Shown here in pieces: positions 8,163-63,275 of a DNA stretch of 64,000 nt. The DNA is from an uncultured Ignavibacteriales bacterium (lineage in GTDB: Bacteria; Zixibacteria; MSB-5A5; GN15; FEB-12): contig CAYNEO010000004.1 in assembly GCA_964396245.1 (NCBI GenBank), positions 72,402-136,401 on the forward strand, in the 5' to 3' direction. The notes under the pieces are model-generated. The model was not told where the DNA came from and ran no database searches. It saw only the letters and a program-made list of their open reading frames with translations. The first letter of the stretch is position 1, and each line of letters starts with the position of its first letter. The position numbers were made by a program, and so were the translations under genes.

Positions 8163-8711
8163 ATGCTTTGTCCGGAATGTAACAAACGGGAAGCAACCGT
8201 ACATTTGACACAGATCGTAAACAATCAGAAGGTAACGGTATCGCTGTGCAAGGAGTGCGCGGCCAAAGTCGGCTTCCACTCTCCGCTCGACAACATGCCC
8301 TTTCCTCTGGCGGAGATACTCTCAGGTATGACACAGAATTTACCCCAGGCCGCGCAAACTGAAGCCGATGAATCGCTGGTCTGCGAAACGTGCCATATGA
8401 CGTTTGCTGATTTTGCCCGTCACGGCCGTTTCGGTTGTGGCGGCTGTTATTCGGCCTTTCGGCCGAAACTCGAACCGATCATGCGCAAAATTCACGGTTC
8501 GTCGCTGCACCGGGGACGCAATCCCGGCATGATCGCCGGCGGTGCGGCCAGCCAGGCGCTTCCCATCAAGGAAGAAGAGCGGCTCGACACCGAGCTGCGC
8601 AAGGCTATCGAAGCGGAAGATTTCGAACGCGCCGCCGAATTGCGCGACAAACTCAAGGCAATGCGGCATAGTCCGGCGCATGAAGACGATGACCAGGGAG
8701 CGGATGAATAG
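8163..8711 (+). CDS. mcsA: protein arginine kinase activator McsA (UvrB/C motif protein)
   Basis: Paired Cys clusters CPEC..CKEC and CETC..CGGC plus a C-terminal UVR motif EDFERAAELRDKLKAMR. Lies upstream of mcsB. Confidence 0.85.
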   Translation: MLCPECNKREATVHLTQIVNNQKVTVSLCKECAAKVGFHSPLDNMPFPLAEILSGMTQNLPQAAQTEADESLVCETCHMTFADFARHGRFGCGGCYSAFRPKLEPIMRKIHGSSLHRGRNPGMIAGGAASQALPIKEEERLDTELRKAIEAEDFERAAELRDKLKAMRHSPAHEDDDQGADE

Positions 8712-9777
8712 AGTGAGCACGATGTTTGATGACATGGCAAAGTCGCCGGCGGCCTGGCTTACCGGTAAAGGAAGTGACTCGCTGGTCGTGATTTCCAGCC
8801 GCGTTCGTGTGGCCAGAAATGTGGCCGGCTGCCTCTTTCCGCCCGCAGCCGATGTCGAAACCAAGAAGCGTATTGTCTCCTATTTCGACTCGGCCAGCAC
8901 CAAATCGAAACTGCTGTCTTCGGGAGACTACCACAAGGCGGCGGATATCGGTGACCTCGACCGCGATTTCCTCATCGAACGGCACCTGATTTCACCGGTC
9001 TTTCTGGACGGCGATCTCTCGAAAGCGCTGTTTATCGGCGCTGACGAGCGCGTGTCGATCATGATAAACGAGGAAGATCACCTGCGAATCCAGGCACTGG
9101 CGGCGGGATTGGACCCCCAGGGCGCCTATGAACTGGCCATGCAGTATGAATCCGAGGTCGGCAAGTATCTCGAATTCGATTACGATGCGGACTTTGGCTA
9201 TCTCACCGCGTGTCCCACCAACGTCGGCACCGGCATGCGAGCCTCGATTCTCATCCATCTGCCCGGTATGGTGCTGACCAAGGAAATCGATCGCATGATA
9301 TCGCGCATCACCCGCAGCGGCCTTATCGTGCGAGGATTCTACGGTGAAGGATCCGATGTGCTCGGCAACCTGTTCCAGATTTCGAATCAGAACACACTCG
9401 GGCTTGCCGAGGAAGAGATTGTCAACCAGATCACGCGTGTGGCCGAAGAAATCATCGAAAGCGAGGCGGCTGCGCGCCAGCGGCTTATCGATGAAGCCGG
9501 TGATATGATCGAGGACAAGATCTGGCGTTCATACGGAATTCTGAAACACGCCCGCGTGCTGACATCCGACGAGGTTATGAACCTGCTCTCGGCGGTGCGG
9601 CTCGGTCATGCGATGAAGATTATAGATTTTCTGGATATCTCACTGATCAATGAAATTCTGCTGTTGTCGCAACCGGCGCATCTGCAGAAATACTATGGAC
9701 AGGAAATGGACAACAACCGTCGTGACTTTGTCAGAGCCCAAATGGTACGGGAAAAGCTACGGAACAGTCAACAATGA
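8704..9777 (+). CDS. mcsB: protein arginine kinase McsB
   Basis: ATP:guanido phosphotransferase signatures NEEDHLRIQ and CPTNVGTGMRAS. ATG 8704 overlaps the mcsA stop (ATGAATAG). Confidence 0.88.
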   Translation: MNRVSTMFDDMAKSPAAWLTGKGSDSLVVISSRVRVARNVAGCLFPPAADVETKKRIVSYFDSASTKSKLLSSGDYHKAADIGDLDRDFLIERHLISPVFLDGDLSKALFIGADERVSIMINEEDHLRIQALAAGLDPQGAYELAMQYESEVGKYLEFDYDADFGYLTACPTNVGTGMRASILIHLPGMVLTKEIDRMISRITRSGLIVRGFYGEGSDVLGNLFQISNQNTLGLAEEEIVNQITRVAEEIIESEAAARQRLIDEAGDMIEDKIWRSYGILKHARVLTSDEVMNLLSAVRLGHAMKIIDFLDISLINEILLLSQPAHLQKYYGQEMDNNRRDFVRAQMVREKLRNSQQ

Positions 9778-9846
9778 ATAGTTGTTTTGAACTTGCAAGA
9801 CAGATAGAAGAGCGTTATTTCTATAGAGAAGGAAGGTACTAACAAT

Positions 9847-12315
<2,469 letters not shown>

Positions 12316-38787: not shown

Positions 38788-40263
38788 TCAATCGACACGC
38801 TGGGGATTGTTCCACCAAAAGCGGGTCAAACCCCTGTCACTGCCGACCCACAGGTAGTCGCCGTCGAGCAGAAGGGCGTTAACATAGGTTGACGGCAGGC
38901 CGTCGTCGATGCTAAACTCCCTGGAGTACGGCATGCGCTCGCCCCTGAACAGAAGGGTGAAGCCCCGGTCGGAACTGACAGCGGCGATATCGCTGTTGGC
39001 CGCCAGTGCACGCGGGCGGAACAGGGCGCTCTGAAGCGGGAACTCCTGCGCCTCGCCGGTTGCCGTGTTCAGCATGACCACACCGCCGTCGGATGCAAAC
39101 CAGACCTCGTCCTCGTACACCGCGATGCTGTACACCTCATTGAACAACACCATCTTTGGATCCTGGTACCGCTGTAACTTCCCGGTTTTCAGCGACAGTC
39201 GGTAGGCGCCGGAACTTGCGGCTATCCAGACAAAGTCGTTGAGCCGCTTAATTGCGTAGATGGTCTGGTTGATAAACTCGCCCGGGTTGACGTACAGCAC
39301 CGAGTCGGCCATAAAATCAAGGAGTGTCAATCCGCCCGCCGTCCCCACATACAGCGTATCGCCGATCAGCTCGAGACTCGTGACTTCATCGTCCGTAAGA
39401 CCGGACCTCCGATTCATCTGATCGGTGACCCGATTCAGCTGCCGGTCGTACACTAACAAGCCGATGGCGGTGCCGATGTAAATCGCCTGGCTGTCAGCCG
39501 CGAGGCAGGCAATATCTACCGCCGGAAAATCATTCGTGACCCCCGACTCGATATACACAAAACCGCTGTCGTTTCGGTTAAAGCCTGATATCCCCGTCCG
39601 GTAGCTGTTTTGTATGCGGCCCGTGACCCAGAGAATACTGTCGTCTTCCAGGATAACATCGACTTGATCCTGGAGCAGCCCGTACGGTATCAACTTCATC
39701 ACGTCCGTGACCGATGATGCCGTGGCAGCGCCGTACCCCCAGGTGCCAATCCAGACTGAGCCGGTGCCGTCATCGAGAATATCGGTTATCCGAAATGAAC
39801 GCCCGAACGGATCAATGAGAAAGCCGCCCGCCGAATAGTTGTATCCGAACGGAGGAAACATCGTGTTCGGAACGGCCAGGTGCCTGCTGTTAGTTCGAAG
39901 ATCGGGGATCTCGTCCACGTAGGACCACGTGTCGAACAGCGAGTTGTATTCAAAATCACCGTCGTCGGTCCGGGCATACAGCTTGTCGTCAAACGTATTC
40001 ACCCAGACCCGGTAGACGTCGGTACCTTCGAGACCGACCGCGCCGGTCATCGGTGTATCCCATCGGCGTCGAGTGTAATCGTACGTGATGATTCCGCTCG
40101 ATGTAGCGAAGTAGGCCCGGCTCATGGAGGCGGCAATATCGTTAATGTAATTGAAATCGGCGTAGGTGACCGCCTGGCCCGGAAGCCGTTGACCAAACCC
40201 GGCAGCCGGAAGGCCGGCAATCAGGACTGACAGCAGTACAATGGTGCGTATGGTATATTTCAT
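38788..40263 (-). CDS. secreted beta-propeller repeat protein (two-component-regulator-propeller-like)
   Basis: Signal peptide. Multiple repeats of about 45 aa with Y/W-G-T patterns (IWVGT, LYVGTAGGL, LWVGSDRGL). Confidence 0.6.
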   Translation of the reverse strand: MKYTIRTIVLLSVLIAGLPAAGFGQRLPGQAVTYADFNYINDIAASMSRAYFATSSGIITYDYTRRRWDTPMTGAVGLEGTDVYRVWVNTFDDKLYARTDDGDFEYNSLFDTWSYVDEIPDLRTNSRHLAVPNTMFPPFGYNYSAGGFLIDPFGRSFRITDILDDGTGSVWIGTWGYGAATASSVTDVMKLIPYGLLQDQVDVILEDDSILWVTGRIQNSYRTGISGFNRNDSGFVYIESGVTNDFPAVDIACLAADSQAIYIGTAIGLLVYDRQLNRVTDQMNRRSGLTDDEVTSLELIGDTLYVGTAGGLTLLDFMADSVLYVNPGEFINQTIYAIKRLNDFVWIAASSGAYRLSLKTGKLQRYQDPKMVLFNEVYSIAVYEDEVWFASDGGVVMLNTATGEAQEFPLQSALFRPRALAANSDIAAVSSDRGFTLLFRGERMPYSREFSIDDGLPSTYVNALLLDGDYLWVGSDRGLTRFWWNNPQRVD

Positions 40264-44157: not shown

Positions 44158-47115
44158 CTACTTCAACAGCAGCATTTTTTTCGATTCGCTGAACTTGTCT
44201 GTCGCCACCCGATAAAAATACACACCGGAGGAAAACGACGAAGCATCCCAGTCGACATCCACCCGACCGGCGCGACCCTGACCGGTGACCTCGTATACCT
44301 TTTGTCCGAGCACGTTGAAGATTGTGAGCGTGTACTCCGATGCTCGTGGCAAGTCAAACGAAATGACGGTCGACGGGTTGAACGGATTCGGGTAGTTCTG
44401 ATACAGTGCAAATGTCTTCGGCAGTACGTTCGCGTCCGGCGGTTCTTCGACAGGTGTCGGCGCCAGCGTGGCCCGCGCGGCTGCGTTGGCGATGTCAGCG
44501 TAGGTATCACCGGCCAAAAGCGCGAAGGTCACGGTCTGTTCCGCTCCCGGGGCGAGCACCATCGGCCCCGCCGCCATCACCTGGAACAGATCATATCTGG
44601 AGCTCTTGTACGTGTCCGCACTGGCAGTTCCATTCGACAATGAATTGTATTTCTCGGAAGTCGTGTAACCATTACCTGATGCACTCAGGTACTTGGCATA
44701 CACGATCAAATCGCTTCGTCCGGTTTGGGCTGTGTAGAACGGACCTTCGAGCAATTTCACGGCGCGATATTCGCTCAAAGAGGTGCCGTTATTATACGCC
44801 ATCCACGCAATCCCGTCGGCTGACTCATACCCGCCGGCGTCCGAAGCATAGTTGTAAATATCCCAATCGAGAAAGATGCCAAAATAGAAATTCGTGATGG
44901 TTACGCCGCTAGTATTCTGCAGAACGTATTGCAGTATGACAAAATCATCGTCGGGCGGGTCGTAAGTGTACGAATTCTGTTTCACCAGTATGTCGAAGGG
45001 GTCGGCGGCGTGGCTGTCGATAAACGCAGAGTATGTCTGCTGGGCCGCAATCGGACCGGGTACCTGCAAAACCAGATTGCCGCCGGGGGCGACGTTGAAA
45101 TCCATGTCCGGATCCCAGAAATAACTGTGCACGGCGCTCGACACCCGGAAAGCGCTGTTGCCCATCATGAGTCCCCCCTCGTACAGATCGTTACCGCCGC
45201 CATTGAAATCGAAACCCAGCCCACCGGCCGGAAACTGCGACCCGGGACCGAGACCCAGCCCGCCCCAGTTGGAGAGCGAGAACGCTAATCTTGACGTAAC
45301 GTGTGACGCTATCGTCTTGACCAATGGCGGAACTACCTGGAAACTCAGATGCAGGGTGTCGATGGCGGTTAACCCTGAGAAAATCACAAAATCGAGCCCA
45401 AGCAAAGATCCCGTGGACACGGTATCGGATACGACCACCCTGAGATTCTCGGGCGATTGAACGGTCGTGTTCCTCAGCAGACTGCCAAAGGTGGCTACGG
45501 CATCCAGCACGGTGAGTGAAGGATCGGAGTTAAGAAGCACACCTGTTACACCGCTGACTGTCGATCCAAGATTCTGAAGCGTGACCTGCCCCGTGACTGT
45601 ATCGCCCGGATGGATAGGGGCATGGTCGAAGGCGTATATCCGGATATTGGGCTTACCGGCGATAGTGGGGAGGGTATCCAATGCACCCATGCAATCAATT
45701 GCCCCCCAGCCGTAATGGTTGTTTGGCGCGAGCCAACTCGGATCCTTTTGGGCGCCGTTCAGGATCGCTGTCTTGATCTGGTCGACCGTGGCATTCGGGT
45801 TTTTCTGCCGCAGGAGCGCCACCAGACCGCTGACATGCGGCGCCGCCATGGAAGTACCGGAAAGAACGTTGTATGTGTCACCCGGCCAACTGGAATAGAT
45901 GCTGGTCCCCGGCGCCACGACATTTGGTTTGAAACTGGGGCCGACACAATCCGACGGGCCGTGTGACGACGAGCGATTGAGCGTAGCCGGAGTTACGGTC
46001 GTGTTCAGGTTCCCCACCGCAAAACTGGCAATCGAGTCGGTCGCCCGGTTCGCCGGATTAAAAACGATTGTGTCCGCGGGCTCATACCTGTTTCCCGCCG
46101 CAAAGATGTTTACGATCCCCAGCGCTTCGACGTTATCGATAACGTCAAAAAAGATATTTTCACACGCCGCCACGCTTTTCGACAATCCCCAGCTATGGTT
46201 GATCACGTCGGGGACATCGCTCACCGTGTTCGGATCACCGTCCGGGTCGGCCGCCCACTCGAAGCCGTCGATAATCGACGCCCCGGCGATATCTATCACC
46301 GCGGCTGAAATCCACTTGGCGCCGGGCGCGACACCGATCGTGTCACTGCTGGTGTGACCCACCAGGATTCCCATCACATGCGTGCCGTGGTTTGTAACAC
46401 ATCCCGCCGTCAAACCGCAATCAGGAATCGTGTGCGGAAACGACTGATGCTTAATCGGGTCGAACCATGCCGCCGCCGAATCACCGTCGAGCCCCTTCCA
46501 ACTACTGTACAACGCCGGGTGTGAACCCTGTATGCCGGTATCAAAAGAGCATATCACTCGTCCTGTTCCCGTATACCCGGCCGCCCATGCTTCCGGCGCG
46601 CGAATATACTTCAGATTTGAAGTTATCGAATCCGGAGCAAGAGCGCCGCCCGCGACCGACTTTTCTTCCACCGGTGCGATGAGGACAATTTCAGGCGGAA
46701 TGATTACGCGCTCGACATCACCACGAGCTGCCAGTGCCCGTAATTCGCCGGCGGCAACCTCGGCCTCGACAAGATTGGTAATCCAGTGCGATTTAATCCG
46801 CGTTGCCCGTCCCCGCGACTCCAACTGCTCGAGCGCGTTAATCAGTCCGCTCTGCGCATGGCTGTTTTCGTCCTTGAGCTGCTTTAGCGCCAATTCATGT
46901 CGGCCCCGGCGGGTATCCGACTGACTGAGCAGGGTCGCTTTGAATTTGGACGCCGACTCGGCCCGTGGAAGCGTGATCCACACGCGGATTTTCTCGTCCT
47001 GACGGCTGGAATTAATCTTGCGGGATAAATCTTCGCCAATCTCACCGGCGAACAGGGACGGTGCCAGGGTAAGCGCCAGTCCGGCGATAAGGGTGGTCAG
47101 ACGGGTTCGGTTCAT
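44158..47115 (-). CDS. S8 subtilisin-like serine protease with T9SS C-terminal sorting domain
   Basis: Signal peptide. Catalytic D (FDTGI), H (HGTHVMG) and S (GTSMAAPHVSG). C-terminus YQNYPNPFNPSTVISF...SGVYFYRVAT...KKMLLLK matches the Por_Secre_tail pattern. Confidence 0.88.
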   Translation of the reverse strand: MNRTRLTTLIAGLALTLAPSLFAGEIGEDLSRKINSSRQDEKIRVWITLPRAESASKFKATLLSQSDTRRGRHELALKQLKDENSHAQSGLINALEQLESRGRATRIKSHWITNLVEAEVAAGELRALAARGDVERVIIPPEIVLIAPVEEKSVAGGALAPDSITSNLKYIRAPEAWAAGYTGTGRVICSFDTGIQGSHPALYSSWKGLDGDSAAAWFDPIKHQSFPHTIPDCGLTAGCVTNHGTHVMGILVGHTSSDTIGVAPGAKWISAAVIDIAGASIIDGFEWAADPDGDPNTVSDVPDVINHSWGLSKSVAACENIFFDVIDNVEALGIVNIFAAGNRYEPADTIVFNPANRATDSIASFAVGNLNTTVTPATLNRSSSHGPSDCVGPSFKPNVVAPGTSIYSSWPGDTYNVLSGTSMAAPHVSGLVALLRQKNPNATVDQIKTAILNGAQKDPSWLAPNNHYGWGAIDCMGALDTLPTIAGKPNIRIYAFDHAPIHPGDTVTGQVTLQNLGSTVSGVTGVLLNSDPSLTVLDAVATFGSLLRNTTVQSPENLRVVVSDTVSTGSLLGLDFVIFSGLTAIDTLHLSFQVVPPLVKTIASHVTSRLAFSLSNWGGLGLGPGSQFPAGGLGFDFNGGGNDLYEGGLMMGNSAFRVSSAVHSYFWDPDMDFNVAPGGNLVLQVPGPIAAQQTYSAFIDSHAADPFDILVKQNSYTYDPPDDDFVILQYVLQNTSGVTITNFYFGIFLDWDIYNYASDAGGYESADGIAWMAYNNGTSLSEYRAVKLLEGPFYTAQTGRSDLIVYAKYLSASGNGYTTSEKYNSLSNGTASADTYKSSRYDLFQVMAAGPMVLAPGAEQTVTFALLAGDTYADIANAAARATLAPTPVEEPPDANVLPKTFALYQNYPNPFNPSTVISFDLPRASEYTLTIFNVLGQKVYEVTGQGRAGRVDVDWDASSFSSGVYFYRVATDKFSESKKMLLLK

Positions 47116-58707: not shown

Positions 58708-59763
58708 TCAGGCCAGTGTGACCCAGATGTCGGAAAACGGCTCGACCTTGCCGATGGACTCGTGGGGGAGACCATGCTTCTTCAATTCGCTCGCAAACTC
58801 GGTCGCCTGAGATTCTGGAATCGCGATAAAGAGACCCCCCGAAGTCTGCGGGTCGAAGGCGACGATATTAATTCTCCGGTCAACCGCGTCATCGACAAGG
58901 GCTTTGCCCTCCAGGAACTCCCGGTTGTCATTCGCCCCGCCCGGAATCATGCCGGCTTCCGCCATCTCGAGCGCTTCCGGCAGCAGCGGCAGCCTATCCG
59001 CAAATAGCCGGATAGTCGCGTTCGATGCCGTGGCCATCTCGTAAGCGTGTCCCAGCAGGCCGTATCCCGTGATATCAGTCGCCGCATGCACGTCGTATTG
59101 CAGCATCAATTCACAGGCAGCCCGGTTCAGCTGGGCCATCTGCTTTATGACAACGTCTGTCAATTCGGCACTCGCCTTATTGCGCTTGATACCGGTCGTA
59201 ATCAACCCGGTCCCCAGACGCTTCGTAAGAAACAGGACATCACCCGGTTTCGCACCCGAATTGAGAATAATCCGGTTTGGGTCGATCAAGCCGGTAGCGG
59301 CAATCCCGTATTTGAGCTCGGTATCCTTGATCGAATGCCCGCCGACCACTATTGCCCCGGCCTCCTCGACTTTCTCTTTTCCCCCGCGCAGAATATCGCC
59401 CAGTATCTCCGCCGGCAGGGTACCCTTCGGGAAGGCGACAATGTTCAGGGCGGTGATCGGTCGTCCGCCCATCGCAAAAATGTCCGACAGGGCGTTCGCC
59501 GCCGCTATCTGCCCGAAAAAGTACGGATCATCGACAATTGGCGGGAAAAAATCCACCGTCTGCACGAGAGCCAGATTCTCGGAGATCCGAAATACCCCGG
59601 CGTCATCGGCAGTATTGTAGCCGACCAGCAAGTCCGGGTGAGTTGTCTGCGGCACGGTGGCCAGCACTTCCGCCAAAAACTTTGGCGCCAGCTTAGAGGC
59701 TCAACCCGCACACGTGACCTGGGCGGTCAGCTTGATCAAGTTTTCTTTTCGTTTGTCGTCCAT
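58708..59763 (-). CDS. selD: selenide, water dikinase SelD, selenocysteine-containing (in-frame UGA at 59703..59701)
   Basis: The tracked ORF starts at 59676, but the frame continues upstream through a single TGA to ATG 59763: MDDKRKENLIKLTAQVTCAG-U-ASKLAPKFLAEVLATV... The U-x-x-K spacing matches the SelD catalytic Cys/Sec-Lys loop. Confidence 0.8.
59668..59703 (-). promoter_or_regulatory. UGA codon plus candidate bacterial SECIS hairpin
   Basis: 13 nt after the UGA: CGCCAAA-guu-UUUGGCG, a 7-bp stem. Confidence 0.45.
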
Positions 59764-60171
59764 ACAGGTTCCTAAGATACCACCCTGCCTCTCCAAGAGC
59801 AACCATTCTCAGACGGCGCCGGTTACCGGCTGGGATGTCGATTAAAACAGCCTCTGCCGGAGGATGTTCAAAAAACGAACAGAAATTAGCCCGCCGAACC
59901 GCTACAAACTATTCCGTTTCTTCCGATTAAATACACAAGGGTCCGCCCGAAAAGACGGATTCCAGAGGTATGGAACGATATTTCGCCACCATGGGAAACA
60001 GACGGGCTGATAACAGATACTCAAAGGGCAGGCGAGGTCCATCCGGCCATGACGTTCCATACATTTCCAATGCGTGGTCGCCTCCGGTGATCCCGAGCCG
60101 GCGGTGGGCACTATTGCAGATGGTTGCGGATTAAAAAACGGCATCTTGCGTGACAGGTTTGAGAGGGTCAA

Positions 60172-62316
60172 ATGGGTGACAAGAATGCGGGTCTCCGGCT
60201 GGATGAAATTCTGGTCTGGGAAGGGCTGGTAACCGAAGATCAGATCAAGGAAGTACTGGCCCGCCAGAAGGAAGAGGGCGGCCGGATAGGATCCCATCTC
60301 CTGCGCCAGGGTTTTATCGATGAACCCGGGCTTGTCAAAGCGCTCGCCAAGCAGTTCAACTGCGACGGCGTCGTGCTGAGCGATCTCGAAATACCGGAAA
60401 TCATCATCAAGTTCATCCCGCAGCGAATCGCGTTCGCACGCCGGGTTCTCCCGTTCGACTATGATCCTGAAACAAATGTCCTGAAAGTCGCATGCGAGGA
60501 TCCGCGCGACAAGCATCTCGCCGACGAGCTGAAATTCATCGTCCGGGGCAAAAAGCTCAAGCTGTTTGTGGCCGCCGAACTGTCACTAACCGCCGCGATT
60601 GAAAAATACTACGGCGAAACCGACCAGGTTGACCCGGAAGAGGTCGAAGCGGCCGACGATGTCGACAACGAACACGAGGCCAACCATCCCACATGGGGTA
60701 TCTCCGCCAACCAGGGATCGCGTGAACGCATCTTGCTCGTGACCGATGACGAAGACGGGGGCGAAACAATTCGCACCATCCTGGAACAGCAAAACTATGA
60801 AGTTACCGTCACGGATTCGGCCGATGATGCTATCGACATTATCGACGGTATCCAGTTCTCGACCGTGTTTATCAAGGACACTGTTCCGGGCGATTACATC
60901 GACCTGATCGACCGGCTTCGCAAAACCTCGCCGCGCACCCGCGTCCGTTATTACGAACACGCCGCGAGACTGCTCGTGGAAGACGAATCATCAGCCACCG
61001 CCCATGAACTGCTGATTAAAAATCTCGACCTGTTTACCTCGATGCTCGTCTCGCGCGATAAACTCCGGATCAACCACAGCGCTATTGTCGGCCAGTATGT
61101 CGACCGGCTCTGCCGGCGTATCGGTCTGCCCGACAAGGACCGGATGATCATCACGAGCGCGGCGTACCTGCATGACCTGGCGCGATTCTATTACAGCGGT
61201 TCCGAGGTGCCGAATAACCCGCGGAGCGAAGTCGAGATGAACGCCCGCCTGCTCGACTCATTGAATTTCTCGCCGCTGGTGGTCGCCGTGGTGAACTCGA
61301 TGTACATCAATCTTCGCAAGAAGTACACGAAACGTCTGCCGATAGAGGTCCTCGGGGGCAACATCATTACGATGGTCGACATCTTCTGCGAAACCGTGCC
61401 CGGCGACGAGCCGATTTCCGTCGACAAGTTCGAACTGATCAAGGAAAAACTCCACGACATGACCGGCCGTTTGTTCTTAAGCGAAGTTGTCGAAGCGTTC
61501 ATTGCGATGATTCAGGAAGAAATGCTGACCGAATCGCCGGACGGCAAATTCGGGCAGGTAATGATCTATTCTCCCGAGTCCGATCAACTGGCGTCCGTCG
61601 AACAGCGACTTAAGAACGAAGGATTCAGATCGGTTGCCCACCTCGCTATCGAACCGTTCATGGGCATGTTTCGTCGCGGACAGCCGGATATGATGATCCT
61701 GATGCAGGACGGCAGTGCCGACGCCGTCAATAAATTCGTCGACCAGTTAATAGACCAGGGCGTTGACTTCCATGCCGTGCCGACGTTCGTTCTTCTCGAG
61801 GGAGAGGTTGCCTCCGAATCGACATCGCTTCTCGAAAAGGGCATCGAAGATGTCATCCCGCTCAGCGACAATCTCGGCCTCCTGATCGTGAAAATGAAAA
61901 AGATTCGCTCCCGGATCGAAGCCGAGGCCGCCAGCCGCCAGAAACTCGAAGTCGAATCCGGTTCCTACGGCAACCTCCAGAACATGAATCTTATCGATCT
62001 GCTCCAGGCGCTTGGACCAAGCCGAAAAACCGTGAAAATCGATATCGCCGGACCCGACGGTCATTTTATACTCTACCTCGACCGGGGTGAGATACGCAAC
62101 GCAGTTTACGGTGAGAAGTCCGGCGCGGAGGCCGTCTACGAGGCAATGACATGGTCCAAAGGCAGCTGGCGAATCGAACCCGTAACTGACCGCAAGCTGC
62201 CGGAGCCGAACAACGACCAGTCAAATGAGTCTATCCTGATGGAAGGCTGCCGCCTGCTCGATGAACGTCTGCGAAGTCAGGCCGACGCCAATACCGAGCG
62301 GATCCATCACGTTTAA
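60172..62316 (+). CDS. multidomain signalling protein: MshEN (T2SSE_N) - REC-like - degenerate HD-GYP-like - REC-like - DUF4388/PATAN
   Basis: Tandem 24-aa MshEN motifs at aa 9-32 and 38-61. ILLVTDDEDG...VFIKD is a receiver-like fold. NHSAIVGQYVDRLCRRIGL...AAYLHDLARF is HD-like without HHE/GYP. The C-terminus has GNLQNMNLIDLLQAL...GEIRNAVYG, a DUF4388 pattern. Confidence 0.75.
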   Translation: MGDKNAGLRLDEILVWEGLVTEDQIKEVLARQKEEGGRIGSHLLRQGFIDEPGLVKALAKQFNCDGVVLSDLEIPEIIIKFIPQRIAFARRVLPFDYDPETNVLKVACEDPRDKHLADELKFIVRGKKLKLFVAAELSLTAAIEKYYGETDQVDPEEVEAADDVDNEHEANHPTWGISANQGSRERILLVTDDEDGGETIRTILEQQNYEVTVTDSADDAIDIIDGIQFSTVFIKDTVPGDYIDLIDRLRKTSPRTRVRYYEHAARLLVEDESSATAHELLIKNLDLFTSMLVSRDKLRINHSAIVGQYVDRLCRRIGLPDKDRMIITSAAYLHDLARFYYSGSEVPNNPRSEVEMNARLLDSLNFSPLVVAVVNSMYINLRKKYTKRLPIEVLGGNIITMVDIFCETVPGDEPISVDKFELIKEKLHDMTGRLFLSEVVEAFIAMIQEEMLTESPDGKFGQVMIYSPESDQLASVEQRLKNEGFRSVAHLAIEPFMGMFRRGQPDMMILMQDGSADAVNKFVDQLIDQGVDFHAVPTFVLLEGEVASESTSLLEKGIEDVIPLSDNLGLLIVKMKKIRSRIEAEAASRQKLEVESGSYGNLQNMNLIDLLQALGPSRKTVKIDIAGPDGHFILYLDRGEIRNAVYGEKSGAEAVYEAMTWSKGSWRIEPVTDRKLPEPNNDQSNESILMEGCRLLDERLRSQADANTERIHHV

Positions 62317-62492: not shown

Positions 62493-63275
62493 ATGATTAC
62501 GAGAACTGTTGTCTTCGCCGGGCTGTTCATCGGGAGTATCCTTATCCTCGCCGGCTGCAGCCCCCAGCAAGACGAGCTGCACGGCGCCGCCGGCCGAATC
62601 GCCCAGGCGTACGGTATCAATAGATTCACCGATCTGGGTGAAATACGGTTTACCTACAACGATTCGACTGCCGCCGAGACAACCCACCGGCACTGGAACT
62701 GGGAGCCGGAAACCGACCGCGTGGTCTATACGGGAATCGGCCCCGACGGCGACTCGATAAAATACGAGTACTTTCGCAACCAGATGAAAACCGGCGACAC
62801 CACGCTGAACAAGACCCTCGACAAATGGTTTGTCAATGACCAGTACTGGCTGTTCTTCCCCTTTCACCTGGCGTGGGACAACCATATCAAAATAAAAGAA
62901 GACAGCATCACTCCGCTTCCGATTCCCCCGGGGGAATCCCGCTCCTTTACGGTCACATATACCAAGGACGCTGAGCACATGCCCGGAGCCGTGATCCAGG
63001 TGTTCTACACGCCCGAGTACGCCATCACCCAGTGGATATTTCGCAAGGGTGGTGTCGGTGGAACCGCGCGTGTGACCACGTGGGAAGATTACGTTCGCCT
63101 CGGGCCGGTCACGCTCGCGCTTGATCACGAAGGCAAGGACGGCGAATACCGCCAGTGGTTTACCGATGTCGCTGCGAAATACCAGGGCGGCGGTGAGTGG
63201 TTTGAACCGACCAGAATATCACCGCAGACATCCGTGTTCGGCTACAGCGAGAGCGAAAATAACTTGCATCATTAG
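62493..63275 (+). CDS. hypothetical lipoprotein
   Basis: Lipobox ILAGC after the signal peptide. SD AAGGAG. No family recognised. Confidence 0.6.
   Translation: MITRTVVFAGLFIGSILILAGCSPQQDELHGAAGRIAQAYGINRFTDLGEIRFTYNDSTAAETTHRHWNWEPETDRVVYTGIGPDGDSIKYEYFRNQMKTGDTTLNKTLDKWFVNDQYWLFFPFHLAWDNHIKIKEDSITPLPIPPGESRSFTVTYTKDAEHMPGAVIQVFYTPEYAITQWIFRKGGVGGTARVTTWEDYVRLGPVTLALDHEGKDGEYRQWFTDVAAKYQGGGEWFEPTRISPQTSVFGYSESENNLHH

Follow-up and report, generated by a model that had tools for sequence, protein, structure and literature searches.

An MshEN-PATAN protein family of Zixibacteria with a conserved glycine-to-aspartate change as a candidate non-enzymatic adaptor for the motor of type IV pili

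The gene described here lies near the end of a 64,000-nucleotide stretch (the window, in what follows) of contig CAYNEO010000004.1, assembly GCA_964396245.1, which is deposited under an uncultured Ignavibacteriales bacterium and placed by GTDB in the Zixibacteria. The window is ordinary chromosome carrying lysS, mcsB-clpC, fumC, ispG, ffh, rsmB, tsaD, recO, glyQS, sodA and selD, and the gene is divergent from selD. Its product begins with an MshEN domain, a receptor domain for cyclic di-GMP (c-di-GMP), and ends with a PATAN (DUF4388) domain; between them lie a receiver-like module (REC1), a degenerate module derived from HD-GYP phosphodiesterases and a pseudo-receiver (REC2). In one of the two MshEN motifs a glycine is replaced by an aspartate that nearly all members of the family share, and we consider below whether the protein could be a non-enzymatic adaptor that passes a dinucleotide signal to the type IV pilus (T4P).

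The reading frame and the five modules, with their order, had been proposed in a preliminary description of this DNA, and hidden Markov models (HMMs), profiles of PDB entries, an AlphaFold model and Foldseek searches bear them out (Table 1). MshEN and DUF4388 both pass their HMM cut-offs, which leaves these two assignments standing; REC1, the HD module and REC2 score below threshold and are backed by the PDB profile matches, the model and Foldseek. The motif strings quoted in that description were all located, at residues 190-195 (VTDDED), 233-236 (FIKD), 301-306 (NHSAIV) and 333-339 (LHDLARF). The N-terminus of the protein fits the family consensus M-x6-LRLDEIL, and a Shine-Dalgarno-like GAGAGGG stands 5-11 nucleotides upstream of the ATG. 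The AlphaFold model, for which 37 family members served as input, has a mean predicted local distance difference test score (pLDDT) of 82, and its domains are predicted confidently.

Table 1. Coordinates of the gene, its modules and the adjoining spacer in the window
Feature	Position (nt)	Strand	Content or basis
Complete gene	60172..62316	+	714 codons and stop, ATG start; cytoplasmic five-module signalling protein (open reading frame list)
MshEN_N dinucleotide-binding unit (residues 9-61)	60196..60354	+	Motif 1 (RLD variant), KEEGG, motif 2 (RIG); NF053729, regular expression
MshEN_C / T2SSE_N1 subdomain (residues 65-150)	60364..60621	+	PF05157, PilF/PilB/MshE profile matches, Foldseek 5htl
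Linker, acidic, variable, disordered (residues about 150-182)	60622..60717	+	pLDDT 28-33; unalignable among orthologues
REC1 receiver-like module (residues 183-271)	60718..60984	+	Acidic pocket D192, D/E193, D236; profiles, model
Connecting helix and degenerate HD-GYP-derived module (residues 272-455)	60985..61536	+	PDB profiles, Foldseek
REC2 pseudo-receiver (residues 459-593)	61546..61950	+	Complete (beta-alpha)5; PhoB receiver profiles, model
PATAN / DUF4388 (PatA_N) output domain (residues 594-705)	61951..62286	+	PF14332, stand-alone model
Divergent selD-gene spacer, 408 nt	59764..60171	.	No recognised RNA element or conserved motif

The MshEN domain is the best supported part of the protein. 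Two copies of the 24-residue MshEN motif, RLDEILVWEGLVTEDQIKEVLARQ (motif 1, residues 9-32, nucleotides 60196-60267) and RIGSHLLRQGFIDEPGLVKALAKQ (motif 2, residues 38-61, nucleotides 60283-60354), are separated by the five residues KEEGG. A regular expression for the motif, written to allow G or D at position 3, matches the six-frame translation of the window at these two places only and gave no match in 100 shuffled windows. The NCBIfam model c-di-GMP_motif (NF053729), which describes a 53-residue unit, is matched end to end by residues 9-61 (52.8 bits, cut-off 38, E 2.6e-14). Given this match, the uniqueness of the pair and the empty shuffles, the paired motifs are real and far beyond chance. 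Pfam MshEN (PF05157) follows at residues 67-151 with 49.5 bits against a cut-off of 23.1, and over residues 5-172 the PDB profile matches are the N-domains of PilF, PilB and MshE (E 7e-34 to 4e-17), the closest in sequence being those of the type IVa pilus proteins PilB and PilF. The four-helix MshEN_N and the N1 alpha/beta fold are both modelled (pLDDT 86-95 over residues 10-150), and the best Foldseek match is the complex of MshE and c-di-GMP, 5htl (E 2e-8, TM(target) 0.68). The domain thus shares with those of MshE, PilB and PilF (V. cholerae MshE, 5HTL) the tandem motifs, the five-residue spacer and the T2SSE_N1 subdomain, and it keeps the Arg, Leu-triad and Gln contacts of the MshE type. 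It differs from them in that no T2SSE ATPase is fused to it and in the Asp that replaces Gly in motif 1.

Conservation was counted in an alignment of 75 near-full-length orthologues from species-representative genomes. R9, L14, L29, Q32, G40, L43, L54 and L58 are present in all 75, position 38 holds K or R throughout, and Q61 is found in 68; the same conservation of the ligand site is seen across 139 full-length relatives. The Asp at position 3 of motif 1, D11, where Gly is the norm, is just as constant: it occurs in 74 of the 75 orthologues, in 137 of the 139 relatives and in 21 of 22 members of a shorter MshEN-REC2-PATAN group. Where the domain class calls for Gly at position 3 of both motifs, motif 2 has Gly40 and motif 1 has Asp11. 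The preliminary description had this substitution and the spacing of the copies right; its statement that motif 2 is perfect holds under the relaxed motif and fails under the strict one, since the residues are R-I-G, not R-L-G. All the solved MshEN homologues that we aligned are R/K-L-G, and R-L-D sequences are absent from the alignments of Wang et al. (2016, PMC5013675). Because 74 of the 75 orthologues carry it, Asp11 is, as judged from the alignment, a selected hallmark of the family and no mark of decay, and its invariance suggests a role rather than drift. By the same comparison half-site 2 is canonical and half-site 1 is changed by a conserved residue.

What this change means for binding is the central difficulty. 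In V. cholerae MshE (VcMshE) it is through main-chain amides, at G11-D12 and at G40-D41, that O6 and N7 of the guanine are recognised (Wang et al. 2016, PMC5013675). In the same study G40I weakened c-di-GMP binding 72-fold, and even the relaxed search motif of these authors demands Gly at position 3. Two of their results speak directly against a bound ligand in our protein: G11I abrogated c-di-GMP binding and function, and G11L gave undetectable binding (PMC5013675). An adaptor blind to any ligand could follow from this, in which Asp11 has abolished nucleotide binding and the MshEN domain now serves solely to mimic the PilB N-terminus and to bind proteins of the pilus platform, for instance as a competitor of PilB or as an N-domain lent to PilT in trans. 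Such a role would suit MshEN_C/N1, which are protein-docking modules, and a PATAN domain that may share partners with the PilB N-terminus; it would also suit PilT, which has no MshEN domain and whose gene is co-transcribed with the family gene at 24 loci (see below). We nevertheless consider it unlikely, if not negligibly so. R9, Q32 and Q61 are surface contacts with no obvious structural role, yet they are invariant or nearly so among proteins of about 50% identity; Asp11 itself is invariant; and known non-binders decay at many motif positions together, as in XpsE, where eight motif positions are lost at once. Since all other ligand contacts are invariant, unlike the multi-position decay of XpsE, it is plausible from the sequence that a ligand, likely c-di-GMP, is still bound with an altered half-site 1. 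The earlier prediction of a c-di-GMP receptor therefore stands in so far as the other contacts are kept, and is weakened in that the substitution hits the very residue whose replacement by Leu or Ile kills binding in VcMshE.

The central modules retain receiver and HD-GYP folds with little of the corresponding signatures. REC1 scores 22.4 bits with Pfam Response_reg (PF00072), below the cut-off of 30.2, and covers only positions 1-75 of the 111 in that model; over residues 186-302 the PDB profile matches are PorX and other receivers. The predicted structure has four beta-strands followed by a long helix (residues 272-295) that enters the HD module, and no full (beta-alpha)5. The acidic pocket is well kept, with D192 and D/E193 each in 73 of the 75 orthologues and D236, at the acceptor position, in all of them, and the Ser/Thr position at the end of beta4 is S or T in 66 (S 60, T 6). 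The following module matches Pfam HD (PF01966) over residues 299-343, its first half only, with 19.1 bits (cut-off 22); HD_5 gave no match to the window protein at E<=10. Its fold is that of the HD-GYP enzymes, according both to PDB profiles over residues 254-341 (PmGH 4mcw, V-cGAP3 5z7c, DvhD 9rc0) and to Foldseek (9rc0 E 2.9e-5, 4mcw 2.2e-4, 4r8z 7.1e-4 with TM target 0.57). A core of REC1, linker helix and HD-GYP fold is common to this protein and the RpfG family of REC-HD-GYP proteins, to which several orthologues are automatically assigned by the Joint Genome Institute, but here the REC and HD scores fall below the Pfam cut-offs, HHE and GYP are absent, and REC1 is apparently cut down to four strands.

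REC2, in contrast to REC1, is modelled with five strand-helix units. It has a weak NblR-type HMM match (residues 464-564) and PDB profile matches to PhoB receivers (residues 462-583, E 1e-4). Its degeneracy, suspected in the preliminary description, is clear: the acceptor position is occupied by M511 (I/L/M/V/A in the family), and neither an acidic pair nor a Lys is present, these positions being variable.

Whether the HD module might still be an enzyme depends on which metal ligands are left. H302, H334 and D403 are found in all 75 orthologues, D335 in 69 and K/R338 in 70, and N301 is also kept beside H302. H302, H334-D335 and R338 line up with H189, H221-D222 and K225 of PmGH, R338 taking the position of the HDxxK lysine. 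M377 (73/75) and Y378 (75/75) take the place of the two His of HHE, and neither HHE nor GYP occurs as a string anywhere in the window protein, so that the loss of both signatures claimed earlier is confirmed. At the place of GYP, where the window protein reads KYT, a K-Y/F-T-K-R-L sequence is conserved, the equivalence resting on motif spacing only. The position of E185, part of the trinuclear site of PmGH, is Leu. With E185 replaced by Leu and HH by M-Y, the module is not catalytically complete on alignment, although the sequence alignment to active HD-GYP enzymes stops after the HD motif and leaves the second half unaligned. By what we take to be the full ligand list of PmGH, four of eight metal ligands remain, presumably those of the classical mononuclear H..HD..D type. 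An HD phosphohydrolase with a mononuclear site, working on c-di-GMP, pGpG or some other nucleotide under the control of MshEN and REC1, would account for the constancy of H302, H334, D403 and (in 69 of 75) D335 and for a K/R338 that fits the HDxxK lysine. We regard such an activity as very improbable: the characterised HD-GYP phosphodiesterases all need a bi- or trinuclear site, HH(E), the E185 equivalent and GYP are gone, HD_5 is not matched, and related clades tolerate the loss of H and HD, which more distant relatives lack altogether. The earlier label "non-catalytic" is accordingly likely rather than certain, as HHE, E185 and GYP are missing while the H..HD..D tetrad does not vary within the Zixibacteria clade.

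Inactive HD-GYP domains that serve signalling are known. HnoD (REC and degenerate HD-GYP) and ECA3548 (PilZN-PilZ and dead HD-GYP) act without hydrolysis, through binding or contacts with other proteins (Galperin & Chou 2021, 10.1101/2021.11.05.467447), and these similar degenerate domains being inactive also argues against an enzyme here. In each case a receiver or a c-di-GMP-binding domain is fused to an HD-GYP domain in which metal ligands have been lost. The residues lost are different, however: HnoD and ECA3548 lose HD and/or HHE otherwise (SE/QLE, HT/ANE), whereas our protein keeps HD and loses HH(E) and GYP; further, its receptor domain is MshEN, not PilZ, and a PATAN output is present.

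That output domain is identified by Pfam DUF4388 (PF14332) at residues 600-699, with 58.1 bits against a cut-off of 25 and coverage of model positions 2-121 of 122. Modelled on its own it reaches a pLDDT of 91.5 and a predicted template modelling score (pTM) of 0.81, and its fold has no significant match in the PDB (best E 0.29, TM<=0.34). Han et al. (2021, 10.1101/2021.06.11.447907) have described the PATAN domain of PixE as an output module that binds the N-terminal region of PilB1 and the N-domain of PilC, and such PilB/PilC binding is known only from their yeast two-hybrid and localisation work. They also remarked that some DUF4388 proteins carry GspE_N, as a hint of a conserved association between PATAN and the ATPase (10.1101/2021.06.11.447907). 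PatA-type regulators (PixE, PixG, PatA) likewise pair PATAN with a receiver fold. Compared with them the order in our protein is reversed, REC2 preceding PATAN; REC2 is a pseudo-receiver; and MshEN and REC1-HD are added. The interaction data for PATAN of the PatA type are cyanobacterial only.

The gene family is conserved phylum-wide in the Zixibacteria. A word-indexed search returned 324 proteins, the best 120 of which are all full-length (about 690-760 residues) with identities of 49-92% to the window protein, the closest being 92% identical over its full length. Named homologues are called "DUF4388 domain-containing protein" and come from candidate division Zixibacteria/GN15. In a scan of one genome per species, relatives are encoded in at least 95 genomes, almost all labelled Zixibacteria. 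Carriers with other labels were noted, behind our loci L001, L010-L014, L017 and others: a batch named "uncultured Ignavibacteriales" from binchicken co-assemblies, two Calditrichota, and entries labelled "Acidoferrum", "Deferrimicrobium" and plain "bacterium"; these labels are probably mislabelled or contaminated bins or naming artefacts.

A profile search run exhaustively over 1.84 billion representatives found 456 proteins at E<=1e-30, and 145 listed representatives that were new relative to the first search were classified with domain HMMs built from the family. All five modules are present in 31, the MshEN-REC2-PATAN arrangement in 28 and a Myxococcus-type MshEN-HD-REC2-PATAN arrangement in 8; many are forms without a detectable MshEN_N, a good number of which are contig fragments. 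The survey of the architecture suggested by the preliminary description thus shows the set to be modular. A fusion of PilT with the family protein was considered for one long relative, P0072, but its 290-residue N-terminal extension is Arg-rich junk from a mis-called start and the fusion was rejected; other long relatives show no similarity to PilT.

Members with the ancestral features are informative. In P0250 and P0244 motif 1 is the canonical R/K-[LI]-G, REC is bona fide (84-87 bits) and HD_5 is matched, and the family profile aligns colinearly with P0250 (717 residues; MshEN, HD_5, REC, DUF4388) over 8-700 at E 3e-74. Since these two proteins keep the canonical motif, a genuine REC and HD_5, and distant clades lose H and HD, the Zixibacteria protein appears to descend, by enzymatic degeneration, from an ancestral MshEN-(REC)-HD-GYP-REC-PATAN regulator.

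Compact proteins of about 420-460 residues with the form MshEN-pseudoREC-PATAN (P0165, P0284, P0285 and relatives) make up a further family of paralogues in the Zixibacteria. Glu occupies position 3 of motif 2 in all 11 compact members of the MshEN-REC2-PATAN group (RLD...RLE), so that both half-sites carry an acidic residue in them. At one locus (L085:8001-10364) the gene that comes after a compact paralogue, in the same orientation, encodes a separate HD-GYP (HD_5) protein, which amounts to the long architecture in split form. The R-L-D proteins, with R-L-E in the compact paralogues, could then be an MshEN subclass for another ligand or binding mode, with 3'3'-cyclic GMP-AMP (cGAMP), pGpG, or c-di-GMP held through an added carboxylate contact as candidates. 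The near-fixation of D in motif 1 in all three sets counted above, and of E in motif 2 of the compact proteins, would be expected of such a subclass, and the MshEN domain of VcMshE binds cGAMP weakly and discriminates between purines at exactly this backbone position (PMC5013675). The carboxylate would, however, sit in a strongly hydrophobic environment (Wang et al. 2016, PMC5013675), the proposal draws on sequence conservation, and no cGAMP synthase was found, none having been searched for; we think a changed specificity quite improbable.

The architecture is less novel than was first thought. It had been called unusual, but MshEN-HD-GYP-REC-DUF4388 was catalogued in 2016, the combination of GspE_N and DUF4388 was noted in 2021, and the Zixibacteria proteins were already in NCBI. 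Wang et al. list "MshEN - HD-GYP - REC - DUF4388" for M. xanthus ABF87190 in their Supplementary Table 4 (Wang et al. 2016, PMC5013675). This protein is printed there as MXAN_2809 and in their Supplementary Table 3 and alignment as MXAN_2807 (PMC5013675), the name that later Myxococcus papers use. Skotnicka et al. (2015) noted that its HD-GYP domain is without several catalytic residues. MXAN_2807 has the same order of MshEN, degenerate HD-GYP, REC and PATAN as our protein, and differs from it in its canonical KRLG motif 1, its length of 661 residues and the absence of a recognisable REC1. Judged from P0250 and P0244, not from the sequence of MXAN_2807 itself, proteins of its type keep a genuine receiver and an HD_5 signal. 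New relative to what was known are the extra REC1, the pseudo-REC2, the more degenerate HD-GYP, the R-L-D motif and the operon link to pilT. A literature search found no paper linking Zixibacteria with c-di-GMP.

The link to pilT emerged from a comparison of 81 orthologous loci, 68 of which have enough upstream flank. The upstream neighbour across the 81 is selD, divIC or a gene of about 360 codons whose product passes the PilT/PilU model TIGR01420 (450 bits, cut-off 319). This pilT gene lies directly upstream at 24 of the 68 loci, in each case co-oriented and with -4 to 0 nucleotides from its stop codon to the first codon of the family gene, a spacing that argues for translational coupling. 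The linked genes group into a subclade that is fairly coherent, their closest neighbour being linked as well in 19 of the 24 cases; they include L001, L010-L014, L017 and L071 (L071:3916-4998, + strand). The gene in the window is not linked in this way, unlike its nearest species-level relative, L001. Most genomes show housekeeping synteny upstream, recO-glyQS-selD or divIC. Downstream, a convergent trio encoding a TPR protein (about 354 residues), a zf-HC2 anti-sigma factor and an extracytoplasmic function (ECF) sigma factor occurs in 44-51 loci (for example L018:3042-4106, L034:7809-8609 and L026:5232-5819, all on the - strand). The trio was rejected as a functional partner and treated as synteny, since it runs convergently, is in no case coupled and does not occur in the window. 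Around the Myxococcus-type relative P0240 only housekeeping genes were found. The term "hub" in the preliminary description was speculation, and the one contextual clue to a target, the coupled pilT at about a third of the loci, had been missed there.

Taken together, we favour, with a probability of roughly 0.5, a non-enzymatic cytoplasmic adaptor that senses a dinucleotide and acts on the T4P motor through PATAN. The MshEN domain would bind a cyclic dinucleotide, c-di-GMP, and binding would rearrange the central scaffold of REC1, dead HD module and pseudo-REC2, to which REC1 may add a phosphorylation input at D236 in most family members. The change in the scaffold would expose or hide the PATAN domain, which, by analogy with cyanobacterial PatA-type proteins, could dock on the motor (the PilB N-domain, PilC or PilT) and bias extension or retraction.

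Several observations weigh against this adaptor, beyond the G11I and G11L results given above. For the full-length AlphaFold model pTM is no more than 0.39, which leaves the arrangement of the domains unpredicted. Alone among the 75 orthologues, the window protein has His (His263, nucleotides 60958-60960) at the Ser/Thr position of REC1, which moreover has no clear beta5 or Lys; the candidate, K283, is K/R in 59 of 75 and lies within a predicted helix. The phospho-switch may thus fail in this organism even if that of the family works. The window contains no pilT, pilus or c-di-GMP gene, as judged from a scan of 30 further open reading frames and tblastn with the PilT-like protein, and two thirds of the orthologous loci are without an adjacent pilT. 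The connection between PATAN and the pilus is drawn here by analogy from cyanobacteria, and PatA of Anabaena, itself a PatA-type protein, has a non-pilus role (10.1101/2021.06.11.447907). Finally, an in-frame deletion of MXAN2807, the nearest analogue that has been studied, left growth, gliding and T4P-dependent motility normal (Skotnicka et al. 2015); in that study only dmxA, sgmT and tmoK affected motility and the remaining 21 mutants were normal.

The last of these points lend themselves to a different target, with PATAN steering some other polar or envelope process such as division, gliding or secretion by a type IX secretion system (T9SS). Housekeeping synteny on the upstream side and the convergent trio on the downstream side prevail in most genomes, PatA of Anabaena localises to division planes, T4P motility survived the loss of MXAN_2807, and T9SS-type cargo is encoded in the window. 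None of those neighbours is co-oriented or coupled, however, pilT is the only operon partner seen, and the N-domain is PilB-like; we hold a non-pilus target to be improbable and prefer the pilus motor. A bolder extension of the pilus adaptor is that R-L-D/R-L-E marks a so far unrecognised MshEN subclass with a changed ligand or binding mode, and that these stand-alone MshEN-PATAN proteins carry the dinucleotide signal in trans to PilT. This is something of a long shot; if true, pilus retraction would be under second-messenger control, as extension is through PilB and MshE.

The surroundings of the gene offered few further clues. The spacer to selD measures 408 nucleotides, as had been stated. 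No Rfam match at E<=1 was obtained in 59500-60300, and a riboswitch or other RNA in the spacer was rejected; both strands of the whole 64 kb gave no Rfam match at gathering score, and no tRNA, rRNA or riboswitch was identified by this search. A conserved spacer element was likewise rejected, as the 9-mers shared among 23 selD-type loci lie only in the selenocysteine (Sec) codon context of selD, and a promoter and terminator scan of the spacer stayed at chance level. An antisense reading frame of 204 codons (59902-60516, - strand) covers part of the spacer and the first 345 nucleotides of the gene and was treated as a shadow frame. The selD gene (58708-59763, - strand) is itself a selenoprotein gene: it starts at 59763 and, 20 codons past its ATG, carries a TGA in frame at the active-site position ("VTCAG*ASKL"), which is read through. 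Gene callers shorten it to 322 residues. At least 5 further loci of Zixibacteria share this context of the Sec codon (GCTCAACCCGC on the + strand).

Elsewhere in the window no pilus, GGDEF/EAL or kinase partner was found among the 30 further reading frames, all of them housekeeping. Where relatives have the TPR/anti-sigma/ECF trio, the window has a 260-codon reading frame without a Pfam match (62493-63275, + strand). A subtilase of 985 residues with a Por_Secre_tail (T9SS sorting) domain (44158-47115, - strand) and a PorZ-like beta-propeller protein (38788-40263, - strand) indicate a T9SS in this organism, and such cargo fits a bacterium of the FCB (Fibrobacterota-Chlorobiota-Bacteroidota) group. 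A gene for an McsB-type ATP:guanido phosphotransferase (protein arginine kinase) stands directly upstream of one for a Clp ATPase of the ClpC type that contains a UVR motif (8542-12315, + strand); this pairing is best known from Firmicutes and is found here in an FCB-group genome.

To our knowledge the widespread receptor domains for c-di-GMP number only three, MshEN among them, and predictions of binding by MshEN are made from the 53-residue motif alone. The family described here comprises several hundred proteins that keep all the ligand contacts but one Gly, which is swapped for an invariant Asp, and so makes the rule testable: either the motif rule is too strict or a different nucleotide is read. 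Should neither binding nor the pilus link hold up, the protein would be just another degenerate multi-domain signalling protein. The coupling to pilT offers a testable route to second-messenger control of pilus retraction, and the family as a whole would give a first functional handle on signalling in the Zixibacteria, a phylum without any cultured member known to us, and on PATAN, a domain that is poorly understood.

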